Source of the DNA: an uncultured delta proteobacterium
Lineage (GTDB): Bacteria > Myxococcota_A > Polyangia > Polyangiales > B10-G4
Assembly: GCA_963727445.1 (NCBI GenBank)
Contig: CAVSGI010000020.1
Coordinates: 789,396-853,395, forward strand
Direction: 5' to 3'
DNA length: 64,000 bases
A program made the position numbers and the translations under genes. The notes beneath the pieces were generated by a model that was not told the DNA's origin, did no database searches, and worked only from the letters and a program-made list of their open reading frames with translations. Below are positions 19,588 to 53,076 of this stretch, in pieces. How positions within the stretch are numbered: position 1 is the stretch's first letter; every line of letters begins with the position of its first letter.

Positions 19588-20084
19588 GCGAGGGGTACCG
19601 AATAAGCTTCGCCAGGATGACGTTCGTGACGCTGGGCGAAGGTCAAGAGATCGTTCGGCACCGTGACCTGGCCGTCATCGATCGCTTTCGCGAGGGCGAG
19701 CGCACCCAGCCCGTGCTCTTCGTGCGTCACCTTCCCACCGTTGCCGCGGTTCGAGAGGTAGACGCTGAGCGTGTCGGTATGACCGATGCCGTCGGGCACG
19801 TCGGGTCGAGTGTCGCGCCTCAAGACGTCGAGCTGAAAACGCTCGCCATCGGCGCCCTCGAGCACCACCGGGATCGCACCGAAGCGCACCGGGTGGATGG
19901 CGACGATCGTCCAGCGGCCGACCCGTTGCGACACCGCGAGGCCCAGCGGGCCGCGCGACTCGGAAGCGAGGGAGCCCACCCGCTCTGCCAACGCCGTTCG
20001 TGGGGCGAGAGCGGCGACCGCGCCCGCCGCGACTCCGACGCGGGAGAGAAAGCTTCGACGCCCCGACCGATCGTCTTTGCTCAT
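19584..20084 (-). CDS. Tat-exported hypothetical protein
   Basis: MSKDDRSGRRSFLSRVGVAAGAVAALAPRTALA twin-arginine signal; overlaps the start of the downstream gene. Confidence 0.75.
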   Translation of the reverse strand: MSKDDRSGRRSFLSRVGVAAGAVAALAPRTALAERVGSLASESRGPLGLAVSQRVGRWTIVAIHPVRFGAIPVVLEGADGERFQLDVLRRDTRPDVPDGIGHTDTLSVYLSNRGNGGKVTHEEHGLGALALAKAIDDGQVTVPNDLLTFAQRHERHPGEAYSVPLA

Positions 20085-20210
20085 AAAAAGCTCTAGAGGA
20101 GAGTTTACGAGGGGCTGCCTTTGGGCGTCAAGGCGGCCGCCTTCGGCGGGGCCCGTGGCGCGAGGGGGCGTCGCGTGCGAGGATGGCCGACCTTTTTCGA
20201 GAGGAGCCGA

Positions 20211-23200
20211 ATGCGAAGTCGCCGCATCGTCATTGTCGGCCTTACGGGGGCCCTTTTCGCGTGGGTCGCGCCCGAGGTCGACGCTGAGAACCCGGACTGG
20301 CCTCCCCCTCCGGGCTCTACCCCGGAAGATCTGATGGACCCTGCCACCTGGCCGGACGACCACAGCTACGGCTACGACATCGAAGGGGACGGCGAGTCTT
20401 GCACGGGCGGCGGGCTCTGCTGGGACGGCCGCTCGGGCGGGCTCTGGAACATGTGGTCGTGGATACCGCCGACCTCGGCGAGCCGCGACACCTTTCGAGA
20501 GGAGGAGCTGGCGACCGGCGCGGGGACGTGGACCGACATGGCCTGGCAGCACACCACCGGCGACAAGTCCGTGGTGATCGCGATCCTCGACAGCGGCATC
20601 AAGTGGGATCAGCGCGACACCGTCGAGCAGTACTACATCAACCAGACCGAGCTCGAGGCCTCCGGCCTGGACACGAACTGCCTCCCCGTCCCACCACCGA
20701 TGCACTCGGGAGACCCCATCGACATCGATGGGGACGGCTACCTGACGCTGCGCGACTGGTTCGAGGGGAAAGACGCGGCCGAGGTCGAGGCCCTCACCAT
20801 GACGCTCGACGACGCTGGCAACCACAACGGCATCGCCGATCCGGGCGACCTGATCACGCTCTGCAGTGATGGGGTCGACGACGACGACAACGGCTACGTC
20901 GACGACATCTCGGGTTGGGACATGTACATGGACGACAACGACCCGCACGACGACCCGCGCTTCTATCACGGCAGTACGCAGGCTCGGATCAGCGTCGCGT
21001 CCGCCAACGACGGCGGCACCATCGGCCACTGCCCCGGCTGCCGGGTCATGATCGTCCGCACCGGCGACAGCTTCATCGTCGACGCGCAAGACTACGCCCA
21101 GAGCGTGATCTTCGCGGTCGACTCGGGGGCGAGCATCGTCCAGGCCGCGGCAGGCGCCCTCAACAACACGACCTACATGCGGCGCGCGCACCGCTACGCC
21201 CACGACAACGGCGTGCTCCTCGTGACGAGCGCCGCCGACGAGAACAGCTTCCACCAGAACTATCCCGGGACCTCCAACCACACGCTCTACACGAACTGTC
21301 TGATCTACGGCGGCGGCAACCCGCAGGCGGCCGACAGCTACCTCGCCCAGAACAACTGCACCAACCACGGTGGGCAGGCGACGGTGAACGCGCCGGGCAC
21401 GGGTTGCTCGTCGGAGGCTACGGCGATCACGGCGGGGGTCGCCGGGCTGATGTTCTCGGCGGCCGTCGATCCCGACCGGCCGGGCGGCCCTCTCGACCCG
21501 CCCCTGTCGTCCGAAGAGGCGCGCCAGATCCTGATCGCGACGGCACAGGACATCGACATCCCCGAGAGCCGACCCGGCAACGACGTCTTCGACCGCCGCT
21601 GGTACCCGAGCCGTCCCGGCTGGGACGAGCGTTTCGGCTACGGGCGCGTCAACGCGTTCCGCGCGGTGGAGACGGTGCGGGCCGGCGCCATCCCACCCGA
21701 GGTCGACGTCATCTATCCCGACTGGTTTCGTGTGGTCTATCCCGACCAGGAGCCGACCGTTTCCATTCGCGGCTCCATCGACGCCCGGCGAGCGGAGAGC
21801 TTCGACTACGTGATCGAGTGGGCGGCCGGCATCGAGCCCGAAGAGGGAGACTTTTCGACCCTCGCGATGGGCGTGGACGAGAGCGAGGCGATCAGCGGCG
21901 AGCTGGCCACCTGGGACGTGTCGACCCTCGAGATCGACAACGGCGACGCGGGCGGCATCCACAACCGCTACACCGTCACCGTGCGCATCCGCGTCACCGC
22001 GCATTACGGAGGCGCCATCGGCGACGTGGCCGGCGAGGCCCGGCGCGCCTTCAACATCCATCGCGACCCGGACCTCTTGCCAGGCTTCCCCGTGGCGCTC
22101 GGCGTGAGGAACGACGTGGACGAGTACGCCGCGGCGAGCGGCGAGTCCTCTCCGAAGCTCGCCGACATCGACAACGACGATCGGCTCGAGATCCTCTACG
22201 TCGATTCGGACGGCCTGTTGCACGCCTTCAACGACGACGGCTCCGAGGTCGACGGCTACCCGATCCCGCTCGGCGTGCTGCGCGGCTTCCGGGCGGAGGA
22301 CGCCTACAACATCCTGGGCGCCCCGGCGTACGCCACCGGCGCCATCCCGACCGAGGACATCCACCCCTCGGTGGTGCTCAACGCTCCGGCCATCGGCGAC
22401 CTCGACTCGGACGGGACGCTGGAGATCGTCGTGACCACCATCGAAGGTGACATCCACGCTTTCCACGGGCCGGACGGCTCGCCGGTCGACGGCTTCCCCA
22501 TCCCATTGCCCGAGGTCCCGAGCGGCGATCCCCTGCGGATGGGTCCGCCCAACCCCAAGTCCTCGATCGAACGTGGGGCGCTCGCCGCCGTGACCCTCGT
22601 CGACCTCGATGGCGACGACGCCCTCGAGCTGGTGCTGCCCGCCTTCGACGGACACGTGTACGCCTTCCGCGGGGACGGCACCCCCCAGCCCGGCTTTCCG
22701 GTCGAGGTGAAGGCGCCGCAGCTGTGGATGGGATCCAGCCGACGCGCAGCCCGGGCGCATCGTCACCCCAGCGACGGTCGGTGACGCCGACGGCGACGGC
22801 ATCGTCGACATCGCGGTGGGCTCGAACGAGCTCGGCGACGACATGAGCAGCGGGGCGGTTCACCTGATCCACGGGGACGGCAATCTCCACGCGGGCGGCC
22901 CCTTCCACGACAACTGGCCCATCACCATCGGCAGCGTTCCCTTCTACCCCTTCGTGGGTGAGGGCATCACGTCCCCGATGGCCATGGCCGACATCAACGG
23001 CGACGGCCGGCCGGACATCACCGCGGCGGGTCAGGCTGGCAACATCTACGTCTGGGACGCGGTTCAGCCTCCGCGCGAGAGCGGCTTCGACGGGATGCCG
23101 ATCCTGCTCATGAACTCGAGCTCCCGCGGCGGGCTGAGCGACGTCACCGATCCGAACGACAAGCCGCTGCTGGCCACCTTCGCCGCCGCGTCCTTCGGGG

Positions 23201-23928: not shown

Positions 23929-26220
23929 TCAACGCACGTCGAGATCCGGCGAGACCGGGCGCACCAACGATTCGGCGCTGACGAGCCATTCCGGCTCGGG
24001 GGCGTCCTCGAGGTCGTAGAAGCCGCCGCAGAAGCAGCGATGAGGGCAGGGGCCGCACTCGGCTTTGTGCACGCGGCGCTCGGCGAGATAGTCCGCGAGG
24101 TTCACCGTCTCGTTGTTCACGAAGATCATGTGGCGGGAGAGCTTGTTCAGATCACCCGTCATGTGCGCTTCGTAGCCGGGCATGAAGCAGAAGGGGAGGT
24201 TGATGACCTCGAGCTTCATGCGGTTCTTCCACGCGTCGATCACGCGCATGGCGATGTCCGCGGCGTGCTGAGTGTCTGGGGCGACCCACTTGGTGGCGCG
24301 GCCGAAGGGCGTGAGGAACTGAATGTTCAGCCATTTCAGACCCAGGTCCCACGCCAGCTGCGCGACCTCGGGGAGCTTTTCGTGATTGCCCTTGGTGATG
24401 GTGATGTTCATCCCGAGCTCCACGCCCTCGGGAGCGAGACGCACGCAGTTTCGAATGCCGTCGACGGTCTGCTCGAAGGCCTCGGCCACTCCCACCTGCT
24501 GCGCGTGGCTCTTCGCGTCGGGTCCGTGGACGCTGAAGAGGAGCGTGGTGAGGCCCGAGGTGACGAGGTCCTTCGCGAACTTCTCGTAGGCGCAGAGCCT
24601 GCCGTTGGTGGTGACGTTCACCCGGTCGTACCCGAGCTTGCGCGCGTAGCGCACCAGGGGGATCAGCTCCGGGTTCAGGGTCGGCTCGCCGCCGTCGAAG
24701 TCGACCATGCGCACGCCGTGCCGCCGGTACTTGGTCAGGTGCTCCCGCTGGCGCGTGGGGTGGCCGTCGATCTGCGTCCGGGTGCCCACCGCGCAGAAGG
24801 TGCAGTGGTTGTTGCAGACGTAGGTCACGTTGACGATCAGCTTCTGGGGGCCGCTCGACGCGGCGAGGCGACCCTGAAAGGTCGACATGAAGCGCTCGAG
24901 GCTGGCCGCGTCGACGGACGCGTCGGGCTGGGAAGGCGCCTTCTGAAAGTGTGGCCCCCAGTCCTCCACGAGAGGGAGCTTCCTGCCCTTGGCGAGCCTC
25001 GTGCCGGGGAGCGGCGTGGCGAACTGCACAGCGGGGAAAGCTCCGAAGCGGTCCCAGAGGTCGAGCGCCATCTCCAGGGTGTCGTTGATCTCCTCGGCGC
25101 TCTCCCCCGGCATGCCGATGATCCAGTGAATCATCAGCGGGACGGTGCTCTTGTGCGCGTTCATCGCGGCGCGCTCGATGGCGCCGAGGTCGAGCTTCTT
25201 GCCGACCACCTCGCTCACCACGCGCTGCGAGCCGCTCTCGGCGCTCACGCTGACGGTGGTCACTCTGCCGAGCATGCGCGCGAAGTGACGGGGCTCCAGA
25301 TAGTCAGCGCGCATCCCGTTCGGGACGTCGAAGCGCACGTCCAGCGCCGCGACGTGCGCGAGGAACGCGTCGAAGTGGCGCTCGCTCACGTTGATCAGCT
25401 CGTCGAGGGCCTCCAGCCGCGTGACGCCGTGCTCCTTCACCATCACGTCGAGGTACGCACGGAGCCGGTCTTCCGAGTAGCGGCGCTGGGTCTTCGGCGC
25501 GCCGGCGGCGAGCCCGGGGTTGCTCGAGCAGTGCGCGCAGCGGAAGGGACATCCGCGCGAGGTCACGAGCGGCAGGGTGCGGCCGTCGATGGGGAAGGCC
25601 CACGCGCCGCGACCCAGGTTTCGCACCACCCGGGCGCGGAAGCGATCGTGCGCCTCGAGATCGACGAGGTCCCAGGCGGGGAAAGCGAGGGCGTCGAGCG
25701 CCGGCGAGGTGCCGGCGTGGACGCCTTCGAGGCGGCCTTCCTCGATGAACGAGGGAACGGTCTCTTCCGCCTCGTACTTCACCCAGCACGCGACCTCGGG
25801 ATACGCGGCGAGGACGGCTTCTCCCGGGGCTTCGACGTAGTGCTGCCCCGACTGGTAGGCGTCGGCGAGGACGATGGGCGCGCCGAGCGCGGCGAGCCCT
25901 TCGAGGAGCTCCGCCAGCACGTCGTCCCGGTGGGGGGGGCGATGAAACGGCGTGTAGGCGCAGACCACGACGTCCGGGCGGGGGGCGGCGTGCGCAGCTG
26001 TCAGGACTTCCCTGATCGGCGCGCCGAGATGCAGTCGTCCATCGTCCCGCCATCGAAGATCGGAGCCGGGGAGCGCGTAGGCGTTCACCAGAGACGCCTC
26101 GTGTCCGCGCGCGCGCAGCACCGCCGCGAGCTGAACGGCACCCAGGTCCGCAAAGTACGGATAGTCGATGAAGTCCTCCGCGATCGACACCGGCGGATGG
26201 ACGATCAGGACCCGAGCCAT
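23929..26220 (-). CDS. Double radical SAM protein: B12-binding-like domain + rSAM + second HxsC-like rSAM
   Basis: MARVLIVHPP N-terminus, TSRGCPFRCAHC, ESGSQ and GMPGES, then CNNHCTFC, DGGEPT, PFC and CGPCPHRCFCGGF. Confidence 0.88.
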   Translation of the reverse strand: MARVLIVHPPVSIAEDFIDYPYFADLGAVQLAAVLRARGHEASLVNAYALPGSDLRWRDDGRLHLGAPIREVLTAAHAAPRPDVVVCAYTPFHRPPHRDDVLAELLEGLAALGAPIVLADAYQSGQHYVEAPGEAVLAAYPEVACWVKYEAEETVPSFIEEGRLEGVHAGTSPALDALAFPAWDLVDLEAHDRFRARVVRNLGRGAWAFPIDGRTLPLVTSRGCPFRCAHCSSNPGLAAGAPKTQRRYSEDRLRAYLDVMVKEHGVTRLEALDELINVSERHFDAFLAHVAALDVRFDVPNGMRADYLEPRHFARMLGRVTTVSVSAESGSQRVVSEVVGKKLDLGAIERAAMNAHKSTVPLMIHWIIGMPGESAEEINDTLEMALDLWDRFGAFPAVQFATPLPGTRLAKGRKLPLVEDWGPHFQKAPSQPDASVDAASLERFMSTFQGRLAASSGPQKLIVNVTYVCNNHCTFCAVGTRTQIDGHPTRQREHLTKYRRHGVRMVDFDGGEPTLNPELIPLVRYARKLGYDRVNVTTNGRLCAYEKFAKDLVTSGLTTLLFSVHGPDAKSHAQQVGVAEAFEQTVDGIRNCVRLAPEGVELGMNITITKGNHEKLPEVAQLAWDLGLKWLNIQFLTPFGRATKWVAPDTQHAADIAMRVIDAWKNRMKLEVINLPFCFMPGYEAHMTGDLNKLSRHMIFVNNETVNLADYLAERRVHKAECGPCPHRCFCGGFYDLEDAPEPEWLVSAESLVRPVSPDLDVR

Positions 26221-27987: not shown

Positions 27988-29772
27988 ATGCTGTCGGAAG
28001 AGGCGCGCGAAGAAGGAGTTCAGGAAGGGCGGCACGCCGAGCACGAGGCCGCAGCCCACGACAAACGCAACTGGGTCCGCCTGACCTACGAGTGCAACGA
28101 CCGCTGCATCTTCTGCCTCGACTCCGACACCCACGACGGGGAGATGCGCGACCCCCAGGAGGTGAAGGCGCAGATCCTGGACGGGCGGCGCAAGGGCGCG
28201 ACGCGCCTCATCCTCTCCGGCGGTGAGCCGACCATCCATCCGCGCTACGTCGACTTCATCAAGCTCGGGCGTCTCGCGGGCTATCCGAAGGTCCAGACCG
28301 TCACCAACGGACGGATGTTCCGCTATCCGGACTTCCTGAAGCGCTGCGTGGACGCGGGGCTCGGCGAGATCACCTTTTCGATCCACGGCCCGAACGCGCG
28401 CGTGCACGACGCGCTGGTCGGGGTGAAGGGCGCCTTCGAGGAGGAGGTTCAGGGCCTCAGAAACGCGCTCGACGACGGCCGGGTGATCGTCAACATCGAC
28501 GTCTGCGTCAACCGCGGCAACGTCAAGGTGCTGCCGGAGATCATCGAGACCTTCGTCGCGATGGGCGTGCGCGAATACGACCTCTTGCACGTGATCCCCT
28601 TCGGGCGCGCATGGCGCGAGGGGCAGCACACCCTCTTCTACGACCTCGAAGAGGCGGCGCCCCATCTTTCGAAGGCGTTCTCGTGGAGCCGCGAGCCGGA
28701 CATGCACATCTGGCTGAACCGCTTCCCGCCGGAGCACTGCGAGGGCTTCGAGGACCTGATTCAGGACCCCTACAAGCTCAACGACGAGGTGCGCGGCCGC
28801 AAGGAGGAGTACGAGCGGCTGCTCTCGAAGGGTGAGCCGCTCGACTGCCGCGCGCCGGAGCGCTGCCGCTACTGCTACCTGTCGCGGCTCTGCGACACCC
28901 TCGACGACGTGCGGGAGACGGTGCACGAAGAGCGCTTCGAAGCGGTGCGCGTCGACGCCGGATGGGAGGCGAAGCAGGGGCCGATCTACGGCGGCGACCC
29001 CGCGAGCGCGCGGCGGGCCAAGCAGGAAGCGGCGGAAGGCGCCGAGGCGGCGGACGACCGCGTGCGCCTGCCCCTGATGAAGCAGGCCGCTCCGCTGCCC
29101 ATCGTCTCCGCTCCGGAGCGTGCGCGCAGCGCGGGTGCACGCACGCTGGTGGTGGTGGCGACGGATGTCGCCGAGGCGCTGGCAGCGGCCGAGCCTTACG
29201 ACGCCGTTGAAGAGCTCGCCATCGAGCTCGACGACTACGAAGGTCTCGGCGAGAGGCTCGGGCGCTTTCAGGTCGTGCAGGCGGTGGCCAAGGACGTCGC
29301 CCAAGCCGAGGCGCTCCTGTCGATCGACGCGCCCTTCGAGGTGGTGGTTCTGCTGACCCGCGAGACCGCAGCGTGGCTGCTTCAGGGGCCGGTGCCTCTG
29401 CGGATCGTCGTGCGCCAGCCGACCTACGAGCGGCTCACCGAGGCGGCGTCGAAGGACGTGGACCTCCCCGCTTTCTTCGCCGCGCTCGACCGGGAGGTGC
29501 CGGTCGAGGGCGTGCCAGCCTGCATCGCCGGACGCACGCCCCGTCCCCAAAGACGCACCCTCGACACCGCCATGTTGCGGCCTGATGGGCGTCTTGAAAT
29601 CTTTCGCTACGCCAAGCGCTTCATCGTGGACCGCTACTTCGTCCAGTCCCTGCGCTGCAAGGAGTGCATTCACCAGGCGGATTGCCCCGGTCTTCACGTG
29701 AACCAGGTCCGGGCGCACGGCTTGGGGTGGATCACGCCGGTGAAGGACCCTTCGGAGGCGGCGGCGGAGTAG
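27988..29772 (+). CDS. HxsC-like radical SAM protein with long C-terminal extension
   Basis: CNDRCIFC, SGGEPT, VTNG, internal CRYCYLSRLC and terminal CKECIHQADCPG. The start could instead be 27898. Confidence 0.88.
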   Translation: MLSEEAREEGVQEGRHAEHEAAAHDKRNWVRLTYECNDRCIFCLDSDTHDGEMRDPQEVKAQILDGRRKGATRLILSGGEPTIHPRYVDFIKLGRLAGYPKVQTVTNGRMFRYPDFLKRCVDAGLGEITFSIHGPNARVHDALVGVKGAFEEEVQGLRNALDDGRVIVNIDVCVNRGNVKVLPEIIETFVAMGVREYDLLHVIPFGRAWREGQHTLFYDLEEAAPHLSKAFSWSREPDMHIWLNRFPPEHCEGFEDLIQDPYKLNDEVRGRKEEYERLLSKGEPLDCRAPERCRYCYLSRLCDTLDDVRETVHEERFEAVRVDAGWEAKQGPIYGGDPASARRAKQEAAEGAEAADDRVRLPLMKQAAPLPIVSAPERARSAGARTLVVVATDVAEALAAAEPYDAVEELAIELDDYEGLGERLGRFQVVQAVAKDVAQAEALLSIDAPFEVVVLLTRETAAWLLQGPVPLRIVVRQPTYERLTEAASKDVDLPAFFAALDREVPVEGVPACIAGRTPRPQRRTLDTAMLRPDGRLEIFRYAKRFIVDRYFVQSLRCKECIHQADCPGLHVNQVRAHGLGWITPVKDPSEAAAE

Positions 29773-32823: not shown

Positions 32824-34869
32824 GTGGTCCGGGCTGCGATGCTCATCTTCCTCTGGGCGGCCGTCTTCGTCAGCGGGGCTGCCGCGCAGGCCGGACGGGT
32901 TCCCATCATCGAAGCGGGACGCGAGGCGGAGATCCTCGCGCTCTTCGAGCCCTATCAGCTGGGGGAGGAGCTGCCCGGCGGCTATCGACTGATGAACGTT
33001 CAGGTCGACGTGTCGTCGATCCAGATCGGCCTGGTCGGGCCCGAAGACCGTCGCGTCTCCCTTCGCCTGACGCCGCCCGAGTTGGCTCCGGACGCGCCGG
33101 AACAGACGGAGAGCTTCGCGATCGTCCACGAGAGCGGCGAGGAGGACGCGGACGCCCAAAGAGCGGTCCGTGCGTTGCTCGCGCGGGTTCGGGCGAACGA
33201 CGACGGCCACTTCTACCGGCGGCGCGCCCTGCCACCGGACCCGACGCTGAACCAGGCCGCGCAGCGGGAGGGGCCCTGGTATGTCGACGGGCTCGCTCTG
33301 TGCGCGCTCGCGCTCGTCTTCTTCCTCTTCGTGCTGGGGAGGGACGTCGCGAGGTCGAAGCGCTCGGCCCTGATCCCGGTGCTCGCGCTCACCGCGCTGG
33401 GCGCGCTCCTGCGTGTCGCCATGTCGCCGGCGACGATGATGGGCGCGTGGCCCTTCAGCCGCACCAGCATCCTGATGCGCTTTGTGTGGAACAGCCCACT
33501 GCTCGCCTCCATCATCGAGAGGTCGCACGGCACGCTCTACTTCTTCGATCTGGTCACCACGGTGAACCTGATGTTCGCGTTCTTCACGCCCGCCGCGGTG
33601 TACCTGCACGCGAAGAAGCTCCTCGAAGATCAGCGCGTCGCGCTGCTGGCGGCCCTGCTGGTGACGCTCTTGCCGTTGCACGTCCGATTCTCCCAATCGG
33701 AAGTGGCGTTCATCCCCTCGATCGCCCTCAGCTCCTACACCTTCGTCCTCGTTCACACCGCGCTCAAGGATCGCTCGAAGTGGGTCCGCCTCGCGGCCCT
33801 CGCGTTCCTTCCCCTGGTCGCGTCGGCGATGTTCGTCGCCCGACCCCTCAATCAGATCTTCCTACCGCTCCTCCTCTGGACCGCGCTCTACCTCTCCCGG
33901 CGCGCCGCGCCGCTCTCACGTCGACTGATTGTGAGCGGGCTGGTCACCGTCGTCGGCATCCTGACCTTCGTCTACGTGACGGTGCCGCTCTATCGGGGTC
34001 AGATCGTGGAAGGCGCGAGCATCTCGACCGTGGTCAACGGCCTCGTCACCTTCCTCTCGCCGGCGAAGAACACGCTGCTCTACCCGTGGATCACTCCGCC
34101 GGGGGTCATGCTCCTCGCCCTCGGGGGCGCGTGGACCTCGACGCATCGGCGAGGCCCGGAGCGCGATCGGGCGGTCTTCCTCATGGGCTGGCTGCTGCTC
34201 TTCTTCGTGGCGCATGCGTACGTCGTGCCGCGCGCGATCGCCATGCAGGCCCGCTACCACCTGCACCTGGTGGTCCCCTTCGTGATGCTCGCCGCGATGG
34301 CGATGGCCAAGCTCTACACCCGGCGGCGCGCGATCTTCTGGCTCACCTTCGTGTATGTCTTGTCGATCCCCCTGCTGCACCGAGGGTTCATCGAGGACGT
34401 CGCCTTCGACGACATGCGGGAGTACGCCTTCGTCCGGAGCGCGGCCCACGACGTGCCGGTGGGCTGCACCGTGATGGAGTACACGGGCGCCGGCGACTTC
34501 GACGCGGACGTGCGCTTCGACCGGGCGGGCGAGGTCCTCGAGGATGGGGCCGAACGCCGACTCTACGCGGCCGTTCCCATCGGCGCCGCCGTGCCCGGGG
34601 GAGGGAGCGAGCTGACCGCCGCCGCCCGCGACCTCCTCGCGGAGCCCCCAGAATGCCTCTATTACTACGAGGGGCTCTTCTGTTACGGCCGCAAGGAGCC
34701 GGGAGAGCCCATCGCCGGGGCCTGCGCCGAGATGCACCGGGCGGCACACTTGGAAGAGGTGACGCGGACGCGCTTCGAGCATCGACTCTACGATGGAAAC
34801 CTCAGCGGCGGCCTCGAAGGCCGAGAGCGAGCGCCGATCGTTCTCCGGCTCTACCGCGTGGTTCCGTAG
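32824..34869 (+). CDS. Polytopic membrane protein, GT-C (PMT/ArnT-like) glycosyltransferase with N-terminal soluble module
   Basis: Many TM helices, PLHVRFSQSE, ARP and QARY motifs; heads an operon with GT2 and NDP-sugar genes. Confidence 0.7.
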   Translation: MVRAAMLIFLWAAVFVSGAAAQAGRVPIIEAGREAEILALFEPYQLGEELPGGYRLMNVQVDVSSIQIGLVGPEDRRVSLRLTPPELAPDAPEQTESFAIVHESGEEDADAQRAVRALLARVRANDDGHFYRRRALPPDPTLNQAAQREGPWYVDGLALCALALVFFLFVLGRDVARSKRSALIPVLALTALGALLRVAMSPATMMGAWPFSRTSILMRFVWNSPLLASIIERSHGTLYFFDLVTTVNLMFAFFTPAAVYLHAKKLLEDQRVALLAALLVTLLPLHVRFSQSEVAFIPSIALSSYTFVLVHTALKDRSKWVRLAALAFLPLVASAMFVARPLNQIFLPLLLWTALYLSRRAAPLSRRLIVSGLVTVVGILTFVYVTVPLYRGQIVEGASISTVVNGLVTFLSPAKNTLLYPWITPPGVMLLALGGAWTSTHRRGPERDRAVFLMGWLLLFFVAHAYVVPRAIAMQARYHLHLVVPFVMLAAMAMAKLYTRRRAIFWLTFVYVLSIPLLHRGFIEDVAFDDMREYAFVRSAAHDVPVGCTVMEYTGAGDFDADVRFDRAGEVLEDGAERRLYAAVPIGAAVPGGGSELTAAARDLLAEPPECLYYYEGLFCYGRKEPGEPIAGACAEMHRAAHLEEVTRTRFEHRLYDGNLSGGLEGRERAPIVLRLYRVVP

Positions 34870-36789
34870 ATGGCCCGCTTCCCCTTCGCTGGCGTCCTCT
34901 TGATCGCATCTTCTGCGGTGGCTTCACCAGCGGCTGCGCAGCAGTGCGAGGACGCCGAGGACTGGGTGCGCGCTTGCGGATCGGAAGACGTGGACGTCGC
35001 GCTCGTGCGCTGCCTGCCCGGGGGCCTGGTCGTCTCCGCGCGGAGCGGCGACACCGCCCTCGAAGTCGAGATCGCGCGGGACCGTCCGGGCGCGTTCCAA
35101 CAGGTCGCCGACTTCGGCGTCTCCCCCATCGCCGAGTACGCGGATTGGTCCCTGGCGCCCGAGCCGGTGCATCGCGCCTTCGAGACGGTCGCGGCCTGCG
35201 TCGCCCGCGACCCCTCGCTCGCGGTTCCCGAGGGGCGCCTGTCCGCCGGCGAACGCGGCGTCGCGATCCCCGCGCCGCCCGTCCCCTGGCTCCCATTGTC
35301 CGCGTTGCTCCTTCTGATGGCGGCCCTCGCGCTCCATCTCTTCCGCGCCCGCCCTTCGCTCCGGGCCGCGGCGCTCGCCGTCGCGCCGCCCCTCGGGCTG
35401 GCGCTGGTCGCCTACGTGGGCCGCACGCTGATCGCCAGCCCCTCCTTCGTCCACCAGAACGGGCAGGGTCCTCTCTGGGTGAGCCATGCCCTCTGCGTCA
35501 CCCCCGTGTACGGGCCGGGCTACTTCGAGGTCTTCGGCTCGCTGGTCCGGATGATCGGCGGCGAGCCGAGCGCGGCGGTCTTCACGGTGCAGGCTTTGCT
35601 GGGGGCGCTCGCCGTCGGGGCGGTGTGGGTGCTCGCCCGCGGCGCGTGGATCGGGCGTCCCCTGGCCCTCGCCCTCTCCCTCGCGGTCGCCTTCGAGCCA
35701 GGCCTCGTGCGCATCGCGCAGAGTGAGAGCTACTTCGGAACCATCTCGTCCCTGCTCCTGATCGCCGGCGCGGCCCTCTCCATCGGCGCCCGGCGCCGCG
35801 GGCCCGCGGACCCCGAGTTCCTTCTCTGCGCGGGGGCGGCCGGGCTCCTCGTGGCCGAGGCCGCGCGCATCCATCCGGTCGCCTGGGTCGCTTCGGCCAC
35901 GCTCCCGCTCGTGGTCGCGGTGGGTGGCGGGCAGCTTCGCCGGCGCCTCTTGGATACGGCCGTGGCCACGCTGGTGGTGGGCGTCCTCGCCGCGGCTTTC
36001 GCTTTTGGTGTCATCGGTAGCGTCACCACGGGCGGCGTGGGCGACGATTGGCTGCCCGACTTCTTCTCGCGGATCCCCAGAAGTCGCCTGCACTGGGGGC
36101 TCCTCTTCGCGACGGTCGGGGCGCTCGCCATCGCCTTCGGTGCCTCGCAACGGCGACGGGGGATCCTGCGCGCGGTCGTCTTGTTCGCCGTGATCGCGGT
36201 CGCCTTCGGCACGCACGTGATCGGGGCCGTCGGGCCGCTGATCGTCACCGGCTATCTCCTGCTCTTCCTGCCGGCCTTCGTCGCGGCGCTCGGCACCGGG
36301 CTCGCCGGGCTCAGGGCCGGGCGCTCGCCCTGGCTCCTCGCCGGGGGGCTCTTGCTGGTGTCCCTCGGCTACGCCGCTACGCGCGCGGGAGCGCTCTTCG
36401 AGCTCCCCACCGACGCGGCAGAACAGGCCTGGATCCTGACGCAGCGCTCGGAGTTGCCCGAGGACGCCACCGTATCGTTCCTGGGAGCGGCGGGGCCGCG
36501 CCGCCGTCTCCACCTCCCGCTCTACGGTGAATGCGGGACCGGGGAAGGGCCCGTCGCTTCGCCTCTCTCCGAGCAGAATGTCGGGCGCGACCTCCACGGG
36601 ATCTGGTACCGCTCGTCTCTGTGCGCCACCGACGATGGACGGGCTCTGTGTGACGCGGTGGAGCGGCGCCTGTCGCTGAGGCCTCTCCAGACGACCGACC
36701 TCGTCGCGAAGGAGAGCATGGAAGGCCTCGGCTACGATGACGGAACCGTTCACGTGGGGTTCTACGCCATCGAGGAGCGCGCGCGATGA
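34870..36789 (+). CDS. Second GT-C-like polytopic membrane protein
   Basis: Many TM helices, HQNGQG, YGPGY and PGLVRIAQSESY (matches the SQSE motif of its neighbour). Confidence 0.65.
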   Translation: MARFPFAGVLLIASSAVASPAAAQQCEDAEDWVRACGSEDVDVALVRCLPGGLVVSARSGDTALEVEIARDRPGAFQQVADFGVSPIAEYADWSLAPEPVHRAFETVAACVARDPSLAVPEGRLSAGERGVAIPAPPVPWLPLSALLLLMAALALHLFRARPSLRAAALAVAPPLGLALVAYVGRTLIASPSFVHQNGQGPLWVSHALCVTPVYGPGYFEVFGSLVRMIGGEPSAAVFTVQALLGALAVGAVWVLARGAWIGRPLALALSLAVAFEPGLVRIAQSESYFGTISSLLLIAGAALSIGARRRGPADPEFLLCAGAAGLLVAEAARIHPVAWVASATLPLVVAVGGGQLRRRLLDTAVATLVVGVLAAAFAFGVIGSVTTGGVGDDWLPDFFSRIPRSRLHWGLLFATVGALAIAFGASQRRRGILRAVVLFAVIAVAFGTHVIGAVGPLIVTGYLLLFLPAFVAALGTGLAGLRAGRSPWLLAGGLLLVSLGYAATRAGALFELPTDAAEQAWILTQRSELPEDATVSFLGAAGPRRRLHLPLYGECGTGEGPVASPLSEQNVGRDLHGIWYRSSLCATDDGRALCDAVERRLSLRPLQTTDLVAKESMEGLGYDDGTVHVGFYAIEERAR

Positions 36790-37475: not shown

Positions 37476-37505
37476 GAGGTGCTCTGGATGTAGACTTCTC
37501 AGAAG

Positions 37506-38437: not shown

Positions 38438-38441
<4 letters not shown>
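37506..38441 (+). CDS. Sugar-1-phosphate nucleotidyltransferase (RmlA-like)
   Basis: ILAAGEGVRM, PKPLL, QEEPQGIAHA, LGD, EKP, YELTDA. Confidence 0.92.
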
Positions 38442-39353
<912 letters not shown>

Positions 39354-39373
<20 letters not shown>

Positions 39374-40712
39374 CGGGGAGGCGCCTCTTGGATCGCCTTC
39401 GCACCGCCTCGGGGCCGGTGGGCCCCTTTCTGAGATCGAGGAGCATGCCGCCCGGGTCGCTCTCGCGCACGGCATCCACACAGGCGGCGATGATGGCCTC
39501 GAGCACCGCGGTGTCACCGCTCTGATTGCGATAGTGCATGTTGAAGGACGCGCTCCGCGCGAGGGCGCGCGCGCCTTCGTCGCGGCCGGTCAGGACGAAG
39601 TCGACCCGCGACCCCTCCTGAACGAAGCGGTAGAGGCACGCGCGGCGCTGGAGCACGATGTCGTCGAGGGTCGCGCCCGTTCGCTCCTCCACGCCCTCGA
39701 TCAGCGCGGCCCACAGGGGCTGATCGGTCTTGGGCGCCGTGCCTCTGCCCGGCTGATCCGAGCCCACCCACAGCCCGTCCTCGGGCTCTTCCCAGGGGGT
39801 CGTGCGGGGATAGGGCGTGAGCAGATCCTGCTCCCAGCCGTGCTTGGAGATGTACGGGTGGGTGAGACCCAGGCAGCTCTCGCTGTGTTCGCACTTGGCC
39901 TCGTAGAGACAGGCGAACTTCGGATAGGTCTCGTAGAACTCCTCGACCACGATCACGTCCGGCTGGGTGTTGTCCTGGAGCTTTTCGTGCTCGCCGAGCA
40001 GGCATCGCGGCACGTACTTCACCGCCGCTTCGATCCCGTATTCGCCGCAGCGCGTGAGGGCGCGGCGGAGTGAAGGCGCGAGCTCGGCCATGGGCGACAG
40101 GAGCCCCCGCTCGTCGGCGTAGTCCTCCATGGGGAGGTAGTTCCACCACTCCATCCGCACCGGCGACAGATCGCGGACGGTGTCCACGATCTCCGCGAGG
40201 TGCGGCTGGTTCAGGGTGGTGAGCACGGTATTGGTCATCAAACACACGCCGAGGGCCCGGAGGTTCTCCATCCCCGCCATCGCCTCGTCGAAGCTCCCTT
40301 CGCGCTGCGAGATGTAGTCCTGGGTCGCGGCGTCGTGTCCGTGGAGCGACACGAAGTACTCGTCAATCCCCGCCTTCACCAGCTTCTCGGCAAACGCCGG
40401 GTCGGCCATCAGCCTTCCGTTCGTCTGCAGCCGAATGTGCTCGAAGCTCCCCGAGGCGTGCGCGTAGTCGACGTAGTCGAAGAGCTTCTTTTCGAGGGTG
40501 ACCTCGCCGCCGGTGAAGGTCACGCGCCGGTAGCGCCGGCTCTCGGTGTTGTCATCGACGGTCTTGATGAACTTCTCGAAGGGGATGCCTTTGAAGTAGT
40601 TCATCCCCTCCTGGACGATGCAGAAGCGGCACGCGCTGTGGCAGTGGAAGTCCACCGTGATGGTGAGGTCCTCGAAGCGCGTCGGCTCGAACCGTCCCTT
40701 GTAGCTCTGCAT
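39354..40712 (-). CDS. HxsC-like radical SAM protein with extra C-terminal module
   Basis: CHSACRFC, TGGE, QTNG, PRCLLG and CLYEAKCEHSESCLG. The start overlaps the upstream stop. Confidence 0.9.
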
Positions 40713-41575
40713 CAGACGGTCCCGTAGTAGCTCGTCTTGCGGTAGACGAGCTCGCCCTTTTCGTCGTGGAGGTAGTCGATCCCCACGTCGAAGTAGAGGT
40801 GCTCGAAGGAAGCGCGGTGCTGGCTCACGAAGCCGGTGATGGCCTCCGGGTAGTCGAAGCGCTTCAGGAACCACTGGAGCTGACCCACGTCGATGCCCGA
40901 GTAGTAGATCGCGTCGCAGTAACGCTTCTTGGCGACGCAGACCTTCTTGCAGGCGAAGAGCTCCGGGATCAGCACCTTCGAGAGGGTCCGCGGATCCGAG
41001 AAGTCGACGTAGAGGCTGGCCTGAATCAGCGAGAGCACCTCGTCGATCTCGGGCTTGGGTGCCATGAACTTGTAAGTGTTCTCGAGCTGGATGGCGTCGG
41101 CGCGCACCTCGTAGCTGCGGCCGGCGTGGGCGTCCTCGCCGGCGAGGTAGAGATTGAATTCGTCGACCGTGCCGCCGGCGGCCGCGGCCGTCAGATCGAA
41201 GCTGACCATCATGTAGGGGATCGACTCGCGGATACGGGGCACGACGCGAATCCAGGGCGACAGGGCCTCGGTGAGCGAGGTGATCGTCGCCTCGGGCGAC
41301 TCCTTCTGCGGGTCGTAGAAGTAGAGCTCCCACCAGAGCCGCTCGCCGTCCCACTTCACGCCCCACACCGTGAGATCGCGCCCTACGTGTGCCTGGATCG
41401 CCTCGACGGGCTCGCGAAGCGCGTCGTACCCGCCGCCGGTGCAGAGAGAGCTCCACAGGAGGTTCTCGCTCCGCAGCTTGCCCTGCCAGGGTCGCCGCGG
41501 CCGATAGGGCTCGAGGCAGTAGTCGAAATAGCGGTCGTGCTCGCTCGAGGGCAGGAGCTGTGAGGACGCGAGCAT
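40712..41575 (-). CDS. Hypothetical protein, possible ABBA (PT-barrel) fold
   Basis: Repeated hairpin-like motifs WGVK...WELYF, VSFDL...NLYL and VGIDY...KTSYYG; coupled to the rSAM gene. Confidence 0.55.
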   Translation of the reverse strand: MLASSQLLPSSEHDRYFDYCLEPYRPRRPWQGKLRSENLLWSSLCTGGGYDALREPVEAIQAHVGRDLTVWGVKWDGERLWWELYFYDPQKESPEATITSLTEALSPWIRVVPRIRESIPYMMVSFDLTAAAAGGTVDEFNLYLAGEDAHAGRSYEVRADAIQLENTYKFMAPKPEIDEVLSLIQASLYVDFSDPRTLSKVLIPELFACKKVCVAKKRYCDAIYYSGIDVGQLQWFLKRFDYPEAITGFVSQHRASFEHLYFDVGIDYLHDEKGELVYRKTSYYGTV

Positions 41576-48100: not shown

Positions 48101-48307
48101 GGCCTCTTCCCGATGGTGGTCTTCTCCGGCGCCGGCTCCGAGCTCTACCGGGGCGTCGGCGCGATCGTCCTCGGCGGCCTCGCGCTCTCCTCGGTGCTGA
48201 CGCTCTACGTCGTTCCGAGCCTCTTCACTCTCTTGTGGCGTTTGAGGAGCGCATTCAGTAGAGCACGGGGGAAGGTCCCCCTTGTCGACGACGCCCCCGC
48301 CGAGTGA
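45115..48307 (+). CDS. RND efflux permease, AcrB/CusA superfamily (frameshift at ~45231)
   Basis: FAIRRPV, LPIQLTPDV, GMVLDNSIVALENI, GVVVNNAILIVD, RVRPIFMS. Confidence 0.93.
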
Positions 48308-48335
48308 CCGCCCGCCGAAGGAGTCGGAGGCGCCC

Positions 48336-49907
48336 ATGGCCGACGCCGTGGTGGCGGCGAAGCTCCTGCGCCGCACGGCGCGCGGTCTGGTGCGCAAGAA
48401 CGCCTTCCTCGATCTCCGGGCCTACGACGGCCCCATGCCGAACGCGGCCTTCTCCGCGATCATCACGGTGCTGCTCGCCCTTCGCCTCTACAGCCTCGCG
48501 TGCATGGTGCTCGCCTGGGACGGCGCCTATCTCGATCCGAGCACCTGGGCCACCGGCGAGCCCATCGTCACCGAGCTCGTCACTCCATTCCACGGCCATC
48601 AAAACCCTTTCGGTGGTGTCTTCCAGGTCTTCGTCGGGCTCCACAACCTGACCGGGCTCGCGCTCTTCGCGGTCTGCCTGGTGCCGCTCGTCGTCAAGAA
48701 AGGCGGCCGCGTACACAAGGCCTTCGGGCGCGCCTTCGTCGTCCTGTGGCTCTTCCATCTCATCGACGGTCTCGCCAACAGCGGCACCATCCTCATCGCC
48801 CGCGGCTTCGACCCCACCCGCTACTACGACGTCACGGGCCAGGGCTTCTCACTCTATCTCTACATCCAGTTCGCCTTCATCTCGTCGATGGTGATCGACT
48901 TCCTGGCGAACGGCCTCGCCGCCATCCACTACAAGAACCGCGCACCTTCCCCGGCGATGCGCGCGGTGATGCTCTTCTTGCCGATCACCAGCGCCCTCTT
49001 CGGCGTCGGCATCGCGATCTGGGGCGCGCTCCGGCTCGCGAGCAGCGTACCTCCAGAGACGCCCAACACCATCCCCTTCGCCGTGATCTTCGTGGTGCAG
49101 GTGCCCGTCTACCTCTACCTGCTCTACCGCAACATCCGATACTGGGCGCGCCCCACGCCGCAAGCGTGGCTCCACGGCTGGACGATGGAGCACCAGCGCA
49201 ACCTGATGTTCTGCGTGCAGGTCACGCTCTATACCGGCATCGCCAACGTGGGCGATCGCTTCGCGCCGATCGTCACGCCCTTCCTCTTCGGGCTCATCGA
49301 CATCGGCTTCATCGTGTGGATCCTGACCAAGGAGCGCTCGCTCAAGCGGCACGTCGCCAGGTCGCGCCTGGGCCTGGCGTTGGTCTCGGCGCTGCACGGC
49401 GAAGAGAGCCCCGAGCGCGCCGCCGAGCTCACGAAGGGCGAAGAGGCCTGGATCAAGAAGCTCTTCGACCTCGACGACGATGGAAAGGTCGATGTCGCCG
49501 ACGTCCGTGCGCTCCTCGAATCGCAGGGAGTCGCGCCCACCGCGGACGAGATCGCGCGCCTCGAGAGCCAGCTCGATCATGACGGCGACGGCCGGATCGA
49601 CAGCGCGGAGCTCGCCCATTTCCTCGCGGCGTGGTTCACGGGTGCACCGAGTAGCGAGGACGAGATCCGCCTCGCATTTCGCACCCTCGACACGGACGGT
49701 GATGGGCGCATCAGCGCCGGGGACCTCTCGCGCACCCTCCAGGAAGGCGACGAGCCGCTCAGCGACGACGAGATCGCCTGGCTCATGCGGCTCACCGATC
49801 TCGACGGCAGCGGCGCCATCGAGTGGGAGGAATTCCTCCGCGCCATCCACATGCGGGCCGATCGGGATCAGGGCGCGTACCTCGCGCGCGAAACGATGAT
49901 CGGCTGA
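48336..49907 (+). CDS. DUF2306-like polytopic membrane protein fused to a four-EF-hand calmodulin-like domain
   Basis: GGAGG RBS; KKGGRVHKAFGR; EF loops DLDDDGKVDVAD, DHDGDGRIDSAE, DTDGDGRISAGD and DLDGSGAIEWEE. Confidence 0.85.
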   Translation: MADAVVAAKLLRRTARGLVRKNAFLDLRAYDGPMPNAAFSAIITVLLALRLYSLACMVLAWDGAYLDPSTWATGEPIVTELVTPFHGHQNPFGGVFQVFVGLHNLTGLALFAVCLVPLVVKKGGRVHKAFGRAFVVLWLFHLIDGLANSGTILIARGFDPTRYYDVTGQGFSLYLYIQFAFISSMVIDFLANGLAAIHYKNRAPSPAMRAVMLFLPITSALFGVGIAIWGALRLASSVPPETPNTIPFAVIFVVQVPVYLYLLYRNIRYWARPTPQAWLHGWTMEHQRNLMFCVQVTLYTGIANVGDRFAPIVTPFLFGLIDIGFIVWILTKERSLKRHVARSRLGLALVSALHGEESPERAAELTKGEEAWIKKLFDLDDDGKVDVADVRALLESQGVAPTADEIARLESQLDHDGDGRIDSAELAHFLAAWFTGAPSSEDEIRLAFRTLDTDGDGRISAGDLSRTLQEGDEPLSDDEIAWLMRLTDLDGSGAIEWEEFLRAIHMRADRDQGAYLARETMIG

Positions 49908-50315: not shown

Positions 50316-50328
50316 GCCACCGACCATC

Positions 50329-50449: not shown

Positions 50450-51480
50450 CTAGACCTCCCCCCGCGACACCAAGGCCCAGCCGATCATCCGATACAGCAC
50501 GCGCGCGCCCACGTTGGCGTCCCACTCGTCACCGTCGGGGCCGGGCGCCACCTCGTTCAAATCGAAGCCCACGATCCGCCGGCCGCTCCGGGCGACGGCT
50601 TCGAGGAGCATCGAAGAGCTGGACAAAGGAGAGGCCGCCGGGCACGGGGGTGCCGGTGTGCGGGCAGAGCGAGGGGTCGAGCCCGTCGATGTCGATGGAG
50701 AGGTAGACCTCGTCCGGCAGGTCCCGGACGATCGCCGCGCACTGCGCCGCCCAGGTCTCGCCGCTGAGGCGCCGCTCGGCCGAGGGTGGTGTCGTGGTGG
50801 GTGATGATGCGGCCGCCGGAGCGGCGGGCCCGCGTCATCTCCTCGTCGCAGAGATCGCGGACGCCCACCTGCACCAGCCGGGCGACGCCCTCGAGGCGCG
50901 CCATCACGTTGTGCATGATCGACGCGTGGGACCAGGTGAAGCCTTCGAAGGCCGCACGCAGATCCGCGTGGGCGTCGACGTGGAGGATGCCCACGCCCGG
51001 ATGCCGCTGGGCGATCGCCTCGATGAGGCCGAAGGGGCTCGCGTGATCGCCGCCCACCACCCCGACCAGGCGACCCTGATCGAGCCACTCGTCGGCGCGC
51101 GCACGCACCCACTGGTTGAGCTCGCCACAGAGTCGGTTGACCTGGTCGAGCTCGGGGCTGTCCTCCGCGCCGCCGGCGGCGATGATCGGCGCGGCCAGGG
51201 CGCGCCCGCGCGCGTTGTCGGCCACGATCTCGGGATCCTCCTCGAGCATCGCGATCCCCACTCGGTAGGGGCGTCCGGTCTCGGTGTCGTAGAGGTCGAT
51301 CTGATGCGACGCTCGGACGATCGCGGCGGGACCTTTCGAGGTCCCGGGGCGATAGGAGGTGGTCACGTCCCAAGGGACGGGGATGAGGACCACGTGGCAT
51401 TCATCGACGGGGAAGGGCAGGCCGAAGATCCCCCCCTCCGGTGAGGCCGCAGCGCTCTCGTCGAGCTCGTGAAGCTTCAT
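50450..51480 (-). CDS. speB: Agmatinase/ureohydrolase (frameshifts at ~50780 and ~50613)
   Basis: PWDVTTSY, GGDH, HVDAHAD, QVGVRD, SIDIDGLDP...TGTPVPGG, GFDLNEV, spread over three frames. Confidence 0.85.
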
Positions 51481-51543
51481 CGACGCCGAGATAGCACGGC
51501 GCCCGATCGGTCACCATTCGAAGCGAGGGGTGACCGGTCGCCT

Positions 51544-51819
51544 TCAGCCCGCGAGGCCGGCAGCCTGGCAGGCGTGGGTGAGCGAGAGGTGACTCGGCAT
51601 CACGTCGAAGTAGCCGGTCCGCGCGGCGAGCTCGCGGGCCACGTTGGTGACGGCGCGGGGGGTCGGAATCCGCCCGGCGTTGCGGGCGCGGGCCACACGG
51701 TAGGCGGCGATCGCCAGGTCGCCGCTCTCTTCCACCAGGCGGGACATCCCATCACGCGTTTGCTCGAGGCTGTCGAGCCACTTCATCGGATCCGTCGTCT
51801 CGGTCGTCTGGCTGCTCAT
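51544..51819 (-). CDS. Small hypothetical protein (91 aa)
   Basis: GGGAGG RBS, GC3-rich codons, upstream sigma54-like promoter. Confidence 0.7.
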   Translation of the reverse strand: MSSQTTETTDPMKWLDSLEQTRDGMSRLVEESGDLAIAAYRVARARNAGRIPTPRAVTNVARELAARTGYFDVMPSHLSLTHACQAAGLAG

Positions 51820-51870
51820 GGTCGGCCTCCCATTGGGAACGAAGCTCCAGTAAGTACGTCTCGATCGAGA

Positions 51871-51884
51871 GCAAGTCCCATGCC
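51871..51884 (-). promoter_or_regulatory. Sigma54 (-24/-12) promoter
   Basis: Minus strand GGCATGGGACTTGC(T), GG-N10-GC. Confidence 0.6.
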
Positions 51885-52053
51885 CAAGGTGAATGACGAA
51901 AAGGCGTGTGTTGTCGATCCGGCCAAGGATCTCCTTCGGTGCCTCGGTGGCACCCCTCGTGGCCGTGTATCGTGGTTGATCTGCGTGGAGATCGCGTGAC
52001 GACGCCGATCCATTCATGCTGCGAAAGGGACGATGGAGATAGGATCGCCACCC

Positions 52054-53076
52054 ATGGACGAGACGGCGCGTCTGCTCGCGGAGTCTCTGTCGGGACCGTC
52101 GGAGGCGATCGCCTCGGTCCAGGCGATCGCCCGAGCGATCGCCCCCGACGCGCACGATCTCGAAGCGTCCGTGCGGATCGATGCCAAGGGGGTGGTGCGG
52201 GGCGGTCGCATGATGCTGGAGCGCGCGCGGGCGGCCACCGGAGAGGCGATCGCCGCGGGGCTGGGGCTGCCCTGGACCGACGAGGCCCGCGCCCTCACGG
52301 CGTGCTGCGCGTCGCTCGGGCTGCCCCTCATCGTCGGCTGGGACGTCAGCGGCGCGGCGCCGCTCTACAAGCTCTACGCAAACGCCTCGGATGCCTCGGC
52401 GGCGCAGAGGGAAACGCTCCACGCGCGTCTGGGGATCGCCGGCGCGCCCCTGCGCGGTCAGATCTTGGGGCTGAACGTGGGCGAAGCGTCGGCGATCAAG
52501 CTCTACGTCCAGCGGCCGACCGCCGCTGAGCTTCCCGAAGGAGCGCCCATGCCCGCGGCCCTGCGCGACGCGGTCGGGGCGGCCTGGGTCGCGTCCTTCG
52601 ACGTCGCTGGCGCCGAGGTCACGCCACGGGCGATCTTCGTGGCCACTTTGCACGACCAGGAGCGCTCCGTGCTCGAGGCGCTCGAAGCGCTCTCGGGGCG
52701 GCGCTGGCCCGAGCTTCGCCCCGCCTTCCCCTTCGAGCCGGGCCCGCTGAGGCAGCTGGGTTGGTCGACGGAGGGGAGCGTCACCGCCTACGCCAAGCGT
52801 CGCGGTGCAGCGGCGCCGGTTCATGCCCTCGCCCCGATGGCGATCTTCCGCCGCGGCGAAGTGGAGGTGGGTCTCTACGTGACGCCGAGCGTCGACACCC
52901 CGCGCGCGTTCCTCCGCACTGCTGCGCAGGCTCTGACCTTTCGGACGCGTCAGGGCACGCCCGAGGAGGCGTCGCTCGAGGCGCTCGGGCGCTGGGCCGC
53001 GGCGCGGCTCGAGGCCGAGGAGCCGCTCGACGCGCCCCCGGCGGGTTGGACGCGCATCGAGGACGCGAACGGTTGA
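52054..53076 (+). CDS. Hypothetical protein, ABBA prenyltransferase-like barrel with C-terminal module
   Basis: Repeated motifs IVGWD...YKLY, ILGLN...IKLY, VASFD...RAIF and QLGWS...TAY. Confidence 0.55.
   Translation: MDETARLLAESLSGPSEAIASVQAIARAIAPDAHDLEASVRIDAKGVVRGGRMMLERARAATGEAIAAGLGLPWTDEARALTACCASLGLPLIVGWDVSGAAPLYKLYANASDASAAQRETLHARLGIAGAPLRGQILGLNVGEASAIKLYVQRPTAAELPEGAPMPAALRDAVGAAWVASFDVAGAEVTPRAIFVATLHDQERSVLEALEALSGRRWPELRPAFPFEPGPLRQLGWSTEGSVTAYAKRRGAAAPVHALAPMAIFRRGEVEVGLYVTPSVDTPRAFLRTAAQALTFRTRQGTPEEASLEALGRWAAARLEAEEPLDAPPAGWTRIEDANG

Follow-up and report, generated by a model that had tools for sequence, protein, structure and literature searches.

A small alpha-beta domain on tailoring enzymes, membrane proteins and exported proteins marks an expanded variant of the His-Xaa-Ser peptide system

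The closest described relative of the system reported here is HXS of Escherichia coli, a four-gene anti-phage system that blocks the entry of phage DNA, as set out in the main text of PMC13128918. According to the same text, its substrate HxsA carries a signal peptide and a domain that binds peptidoglycan, is matured in the cytoplasm and acts in the periplasm, the export being termed non-canonical, and HxsC binds HxsD. A passage of PMC9062424 mentions HxsB and HxsC as putative maturases. A term search of the main text of PMC13128918 gave no mention of Myxococc- or HxsA4, and full-text literature, in a coverage that leaves subscription journals largely outside, gave no paper on HxsA4, HxsC4 or the domain described here. 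This domain is found in the window, by which we mean the whole 64,000-nucleotide stretch analysed (positions 789,396 to 853,395 of contig CAVSGI010000020.1, assembly GCA_963727445.1). The window has about 70% G+C and belongs to the 9.5 Mb genome of an uncultured delta proteobacterium (Polyangiales, B10-G4). Five of its proteins carry a copy (Table 1): A, a twin-arginine translocation (Tat) protein; B and C, which are GT-C-like; D, a radical SAM enzyme; and E, the protein starting at 52054. The domain is a real new family and the marker of an expanded, unstudied variant of HXS. What is new is the domain itself and the wider system that it brings into view, with many more enzymes and with exported and GT-C-like proteins.

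The pathway marked by the domain is the His-Xaa-Ser type-4 system (HxsA4/HxsB/HxsC4/HxsD), which is catalogued but unstudied. Its core genes are present in this genome and adjoin domain genes in relatives. The system resembles E. coli HXS, as the latter is described in the main text of PMC13128918, in combining HxsB, HxsC-type and HxsD proteins with a His-x-Ser repeat substrate. It differs in that HxsA4 has neither an evident signal nor a peptidoglycan-binding domain, in the 11-64 repeat units of this peptide, in its many extra enzymes and in the new domain. The initial annotation had proposed one dispersed, undescribed pathway. That it is one dispersed pathway was borne out, but it is not undescribed, because NCBIfam catalogues the core and the relative in E. 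coli has been published (PMC13128918, main text).

The NCBIfam models of the system are NF038313 (HxsA4), NF038332 (HxsC4), TIGR03978 (HxsB), TIGR03976 (HxsD) and NF038315 (HxsD-like). This genome has two copies of HxsA4, scoring 91.7 and 85.8 bits (cut-off 55), and an HxsB scoring 550 bits (cut-off 370). HxsC4, HxsD and the HxsD-like protein were located by tblastn at 69%, 58% and 32%, respectively, to proteins that pass the cut-offs. HxsA4 consists of an acidic leader, the His-x-Ser units and a final Trp; in the peptide of this genome the leader is followed by (HGS)n-W. No hydrophobic export signal is apparent in HxsA4 when its sequence is judged by eye. In one family the peptide has 32-64 units (L152:14646-15419, L153:5077-5751, L158:6110-6643), as against 11-17 elsewhere.

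The domain profile was built before the link to Hxs was known. Among the sampled genomes of the order, the domain is present in 51 of the 53 with HxsA4 above the cut-off and in 12 of the 98 others (50 of 52 HxsA4 genomes when genome G334 is set aside). The corresponding counts for a control, the neighbouring subtilase gene, are 29 of 53 and 22 of 98. In a sample of 251 genomes of the phylum, HxsB occurs in 82 of the 84 genomes with the domain, the domain in 82 of the 94 genomes with HxsB, and neither in 155; these samples partly overlap, and the counts carry no p-value. Where taxonomic families are mixed, largely the same genomes carry both (5 and 6 of 18 in family f2, 3 and 3 of 17 in family f3). 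HxsA4 is found in 27 of the 29 genomes with the C family and in 14 of the 16 with the E family. With 146 of the 237 domain matches used, at least 14 of 58 HxsA4 genes have a match within 10 kb and at least 20 of 58 within 50 kb, where roughly 2% would be expected by chance for a match up to 25 kb to either side.

The initial annotation had described by eye a module common to the five proteins, and all ten motifs that it quoted translate where they were placed, on the strands given (39450-39617(-), 33043-33207(+), 35047-35217(+), 52855-52941(+) and 19758-19850(-)). When each segment was compared by phmmer with about 13,000 GC3-filtered open reading frames (ORFs) of the genome, a set not including that of A, no cross-match among the segments appeared up to an E-value of 10. 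The by-eye pattern needed profiles because the single sequences do not find each other. Nevertheless, phmmer with B retrieves a sixth copy (E-value 5e-5), situated N-terminally in an SPL-like radical SAM protein encoded on a different contig, and the D segment alone retrieves the N-terminal domains of GT-C-like membrane proteins in other genomes. Relatives were gathered for each protein separately, the segments were cut out, and the family profiles were compared by hhalign. Loci of G334 were excluded from the alignments, one row judged spurious (L010) was dropped from the D family, and two misaligned rows (L038, L059) were taken out of the C family.

The profile of B matches that of A (P91, score 43) and that of D (P93-96, score 43-58), and D matches E (P71-86, score 30-35). 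The best score in a decoy control of 280 pairs was 19.5; in 100 reversed pairs it was 28.7, for a profile against its own reverse, and 22.4 for the best non-self pair. Ten subfamily profiles form a connected network. In it B is linked to D and to the SPL type (both P96), to small membrane-anchored copies (P92) and to A (P91), and A matches the small membrane-anchored copies at P97. E is linked to the PhyH type (P89), D (P86), the SPL type (P79) and the B12 type (P66); with four subfamilies it scores higher than any of the 280 decoy pairs. Because it was the E profile that first brought up the PhyH type, this pair is not independent, whereas the D-E pair is. A has no direct profile match to D, E or C, and is linked to them through B and other subfamilies. 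A hidden Markov model (HMM) of the B relatives finds D in the first round (E-value 7e-5) and includes A by the third, but on iteration it takes in neither C nor E. In iterations started from B, C, E or a merged set, members of the E family reach E-values of only 0.006-0.06. A profile that held neither E nor rows from this genome placed E at rank 6 of 13,008 ORFs (E-value 0.12), behind five true copies.

C is the most divergent case. It was never included by the HMMs of other members, its profile found no intermediate across 151 genomes, and the first round of hhalign gave P31 for C-E and P9 for B-C. Against single subfamilies it scores only 22-25, no better than the top reversed controls; with the cytoplasmic subfamilies merged into one profile it reaches P60, E-value 9e-5 and score 29 (reversed 8.7). 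The B and C families align as whole proteins over 544 columns (P99.7). This alignment starts in register, in the second half of the domain, and B and C are therefore tandem paralogues. In the all-against-all comparison that had been suggested as a check, A, B, D and E are thus clearly above the reversed and decoy controls, and C is so only against the merged profile. From the sequence comparisons, the copies in A, B and D are almost certainly homologous and that in E very probably so. The copy in C is likely to be homologous, judging from the merged-profile score, the B-C paralogy and the AlphaFold2 models of B and C. The case for one domain family is therefore firm for A, B and D, good for E and likely for C.

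Some details of the earlier description have changed. The module is not 70-90 but about 100 residues long, with an additional helix and strand at its N-terminus, and only the truncated copy in E has about 72. The V-R-x-x-D-x-G ending is present in B and D but not in the other three. The proteins were called five unrelated ones; they represent four unrelated host families, B and C being paralogues.

AlphaFold2 models of the domain in B and C (pLDDT 92.5 and 93.8) agree in the order of their elements (helix, three strands, short strand, strand, helix), which predicts an alpha-beta4-alpha fold. The two models have 22 of their top 50 structural neighbours in common, and 9 of each top 10. The best matches in a wide structural search (VIA) have Z-scores of 5.7 and 6.2, to KA1, Aha1 and TULIP-type folds, and such scores would correspond to the level of a common arrangement. 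A Foldseek search of the PDB gave no match at E 0.001, and a sequence search of the PDB found no match to the domain. None of 49 aligned members matches a meaningful Pfam or NCBIfam family, so that the domain is indeed unannotated, as first supposed. PADLOC returned nothing for it, and the ESM Atlas gave only leads below 0.9, to unnamed clusters and clusters bearing DUF4367.

RRE domains consist of three strands followed by three helices; they are cytoplasmic and bind leaders. The new domain is like RRE and PqqD-like domains in the proposed sense that a small domain is fused to, or lies free beside, unrelated peptide-tailoring enzymes. It is unlike them in its helix-four strands-helix order and in being present also on exported and membrane proteins. 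Identity with RRE/PqqD was rejected, because the fold order differs and none of the 49 members matches PqqD/RRE models in Pfam or NCBIfam; PqqD-type entries are also absent from the top 50 structural rows for either model. Homology to HxsD was likewise rejected: HxsD windows were among the 28 decoys and scored at most 19.5. The resemblance to KA1/TBP-like (helix-grip) domains lies in the two-layer arrangement, and these domains provide the top structural rows for both models (KA1 of AMPK, MARK1, Chk1 and METTL16, the N-domain of Aha1, and TULIP proteins). The Z-scores are 4.4-6.2 with rms deviations of 3-5 Å and identities of at most 16%, there is no sequence link, and the KA1 rows themselves (Z 4.4-5.6) are tied with unrelated folds.

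The domain profile matches 1,959 of 1.84 billion 50%-identity representatives (E 0.001). There are at least ten kinds of host, situated on both sides of the inner membrane. The proposal of a module shuffled among cytoplasmic tailoring enzymes and exported or membrane proteins thus holds, and a search with the HMM found it on radical SAM, GT-C-like and other partners. In the cytoplasm, the domain is C-terminal in D-type and three B12-type radical SAM families and N-terminal in SPL-like and other HxsC-like radical SAM proteins; it is also found on a PhyH-amidohydrolase fusion, a WelO5-like enzyme, a DUF483-like protein and E, and as a free form of 113 residues. Like E, the PhyH type lacks the first helix and strand. 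The exported and membrane hosts are A, small N-anchored proteins, GT-C-like proteins with the domain at either terminus, TPR proteins, an SGNH protein, and RnfD-like and LMF1-like membrane proteins. A GT-C-like protein is the most frequent host among the best matches. A chain can contain up to three copies, with two or three in tandem in P0030, P0079, P0081, P0113, P0134 and L161. About 12 copies are present in this genome, of which the window contains five, contig C6 three, C12 two, C23 one and C13 a weak one. Single-sequence tblastn, a search of low sensitivity, returned no plasmid match for the A domain and no phage match for the B domain.

Neither Pfam nor NCBIfam has a match for A, B, C or E, or a model that covers the domain or the unannotated genes of the conserved group formed by E, a 287-residue protein and D. 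The domain forms nearly all of A, as was first noted, being an almost stand-alone copy behind the signal. One member of the A family is named by NCBI [quoted passage not shown], and of 20 stretches surrounding HxsA4 genes, picked partly for nearby domain matches, 10 contain an A orthologue. B has an N-terminal signal-like segment, the domain, about eight further hydrophobic segments and a soluble C-terminal part; counting the N-terminal one, there are 9 hydrophobic segments in B and 11 in C. The matches behind the GT-C label are weak: STT3A is matched at E-value 0.007 by the B-family profile and not by the C profile, and Pfam PMT matches, all below its cut-off, occur in 1 of 29 members of the B family and 2 of 20 of the C family. 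C is followed by GT2, nucleotidyl transferase and epimerase genes (36786-39373). The best NCBIfam match of D is HxsC4 at 94.8 bits, far below the cut-off of 500, and its only Pfam or NCBIfam assignment is Radical_SAM (residues 24-177). The "ABBA-like" label once given to E finds no support in Pfam, NCBIfam or the PDB.

The occurrence of the domain at the N- or C-terminus, in one or several copies, on chemically unrelated hosts as well as on its own is a pattern typical of a recruitment domain. We infer, at about an even chance, that it is a non-RRE recognition handle through which proteins are brought to HxsA4, the (His-Gly-Ser)n peptide, or to the product of its modification, probably by way of the repeat core. 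Maturation of HxsA4 would begin in the cytoplasm with HxsB, HxsC4 and HxsD, whose E. coli relatives act in this way on HxsA. The domain would then recruit extra tailoring enzymes to the peptide, in the manner of an RRE but with a different fold; these would be HxsC-like, B12-dependent and SPL-like radical SAM enzymes, a PhyH-type dioxygenase, a WelO5-like enzyme and E. Since there are copies predicted to face outward as well as cytoplasmic ones, the ligand should be present on both sides of the membrane or cross it. On the outer face, where GT-C-like and small exported proteins would display the domain, the feature that it reads would need to survive export, and this points to the repeat core rather than the leader. 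The exported peptide may then be glycosylated or held at the membrane. Judged by its sequence, HxsA4 lacks the signal and anchor of E. coli HxsA, suggesting that export and anchoring are supplied in trans, if the peptide is exported. By analogy, a role in phage defence is possible.

A more elaborate and unlikely version has the module read the (His-Gly-Ser)n core and pass the peptide on through an assembly line that crosses the inner membrane. Inside, the peptide would be modified by radical SAM, dioxygenase and halogenase-like enzymes; A would export it through Tat as a folded hitch-hiker complex, GT-C enzymes with the domain would glycosylate and anchor it outside, and the heavily decorated HXS of myxobacteria would form a barrier to the entry of phage DNA. 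Relevant to the idea of Tat export, two small ORFs that are TatA/TatB-like by eye adjoin the C-type GT-C gene inside the Hxs locus in L152, L153 and L158 (genomes G333, G357 and G302).

Several observations weigh against a peptide-recognition handle. Co-occurrence with Hxs fits any role in the system equally well, and kin genomes are not independent. The Hxs-linked enzymes of the window starting at 23929, 27988, 4689 and 5410 lack the domain. The alignment contains no invariant residue, and the motifs of the cytoplasmic subfamilies are not those of the exported ones, which is hard to fit to a single tightly defined ligand. Some genomes have up to 17 copies, many of them in long reading frames, where one peptide would seem to need fewer. 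Export of HxsA4 is itself hypothetical. A predicted complex of the D domain with the HxsA4 of this genome scored 0.00 in two runs for which controls were not folded, and carries no weight either way.

The domain might instead serve for protein-protein docking, its copies pairing with each other or with a shared Hxs scaffold to assemble complexes on each side of the membrane without contacting the peptide. Chains with two or three tandem copies, the stand-alone and membrane-anchored forms, the binding of HxsC to HxsD in E. coli (PMC13128918, main text) and the interaction domains found among the structural neighbours (KA1, the AMPK C-terminal domain and the IntS9-IntS11 C-terminal domain; Z 4.6-5.6) would agree with this. 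However, HxsD, with its predicted cytoplasmic location, cannot act as a partner for the exported copies, and the structural matches all have Z below 8 and show no function. Docking is possible but rather doubtful. Binding of lipid, of a membrane surface or of a lipid-linked sugar, by genes that make a modified envelope lipid or glycan alongside the peptide, appears distinctly improbable. KA1 and TULIP/BPI-type folds, which are among the top structural neighbours, bind lipid, the commonest best-match host is GT-C-like, and GT2, epimerase, DegT and UbiA genes lie nearby. KA1 domains, though, use a net basic surface for acidic lipid or RNA, whereas the domains here range from neutral to acidic, the mean net charge counted from sequence lying between -1.7 and -4.0 in families A, B, C and E. 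At about 100 residues they are also far smaller than the TULIP matches, and their distribution follows the peptide system.

It is similarly improbable that the family is real but has no single function, the subfamilies being private structural parts of their hosts and C and E perhaps look-alikes. The low identity between subfamilies (about 15-25%), the commonness of the fold arrangement, the failure of other HMMs to find C, the E-values of 0.1-1 at which E was found and the missing first helix and strand of E and the PhyH type all leave room for it. Every subfamily tested, on the other hand, co-occurs tightly with Hxs genes, C is positionally homologous within the B-C paralogy, and E stands above the decoys as described.

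D lies in a conserved group with E and a 287-residue protein that has no domain. With G334 and one weak match excluded, 14 other genomes match E strongly, and in 13 of them the E orthologue is no more than 15 kb away from D. The gene for the 287-residue protein directly adjoins D in 13 of 14 related loci, and the protein is 49-66% identical in 13 relatives. By eye its end resembles cyanobactin LynF-type prenyltransferases; the single match of its family, to a LynF/TruF/PatF prenyltransferase (9vtd), is non-significant (E-value 0.47). In L120 its gene lies beside UbiA and polyprenyl synthase genes. The E-D loci carry genes for B12 radical SAM, PhyH, WelO5 and HExxH hydroxylase proteins, and several contain HxsA4, HxsB, HxsC4, HxsD and HxsD-like genes, all above the NCBIfam cut-offs. 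For a 91-residue unannotated ORF divergent from E (51544-51819 (-)), a relative is located close to the E-D cluster of G255 (L135:8318-8581), and contig C10 carries a paralogue.

Orthologues of the radical SAM genes starting at 4689, 5410, 23929 and 27988 are found in 13 of the 20 HxsA4 stretches, many of which were chosen because a domain match lay near. Carbamoyltransferase, ferritin-like and SGNH genes are situated at the Hxs-proximal end of the window. The subtilase/FG-GAP gene (20121-23919 (+)) is split into two ORFs, the first ending at 22784 and the second starting at 22816; the frame stays open over about 1,200-1,400 residues in its relatives and in two paralogues of this genome, and the split is probably a frameshift or an assembly error. 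A decarboxylase-like gene (7405), a trehalose phosphatase and an agmatinase-like gene (50557) also look frameshifted, with two ORFs each. One reading frame (56990-59713 (+)) combines an MNIO/DUF692-type enzyme with a zinc alcohol dehydrogenase, and another (48282-49907 (+)) encodes a multi-pass membrane protein with an EF-hand block at its C-terminus.

Table 1. Positions of the domain copies, their host proteins and other features, in window numbering unless a contig is named.
Feature	Position	Strand	Remarks
Protein A	19584..20084	-	166 aa; twin-arginine signal (SGRRSFL ... TALA), then near-stand-alone domain
Domain copy in A	19665..19973	-	residues 38-140
Protein B	32839..34869	+	676 aa; GT-C-like (weak support)
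Domain copy in B	32902..33222	+	residues 22-128; predicted non-cytoplasmic
Protein C	34870..36789	+	639 aa; tandem full-length paralogue of B
Domain copy in C	34942..35223	+	residues 25-118; divergent; two conserved N-terminal cysteines
Protein D	39354..40712	-	452 aa; HxsC-like radical SAM enzyme, domain at C-terminus
Domain copy in D	39429..39737	-	residues 326-428; cytoplasmic
Protein E	52054..53076	+	340 aa; unannotated N-terminal part, truncated domain at C-terminus
Domain copy in E	52813..53028	+	residues 254-325; without first helix and strand
287-aa protein	40712..41575	-	conserved, unannotated, without domain; directly upstream of D
Double radical SAM protein	23929..26220	-	without domain; ~70% identical orthologues in HxsA4 loci of relatives
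HxsC-like radical SAM protein	27988..29772	+	without domain; orthologues in HxsA4 loci of relatives
Carbamoyltransferase, ferritin-like, SGNH and frameshifted-looking genes	1-2837, 6617-9006, 41656-42442, 50450-51480	-	
Hxs core of this genome	C20:767068-769937 and 786430-787440		2-25 kb upstream of the window
Second cluster	G000:C6:608602-615335 (L141)		three domain genes: two B12 radical SAM enzymes, PhyH-amidohydrolase fusion

The domain provides a sequence marker by which the scattered accessory genes of an unstudied peptide system can be collected. HxsB is present in 94 of the 251 sampled genomes of the phylum, about a third, and a dozen unannotated protein families, including the large GT-C-like family, are tied to one pathway. 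If the domain does bind the peptide, it would be a second kind of recognition domain for ribosomally synthesized and post-translationally modified peptides, active on both sides of the membrane. It might then also answer how the signal-less HxsA4 is exported or retained, a step left open even for E. coli HXS in the main text of PMC13128918.

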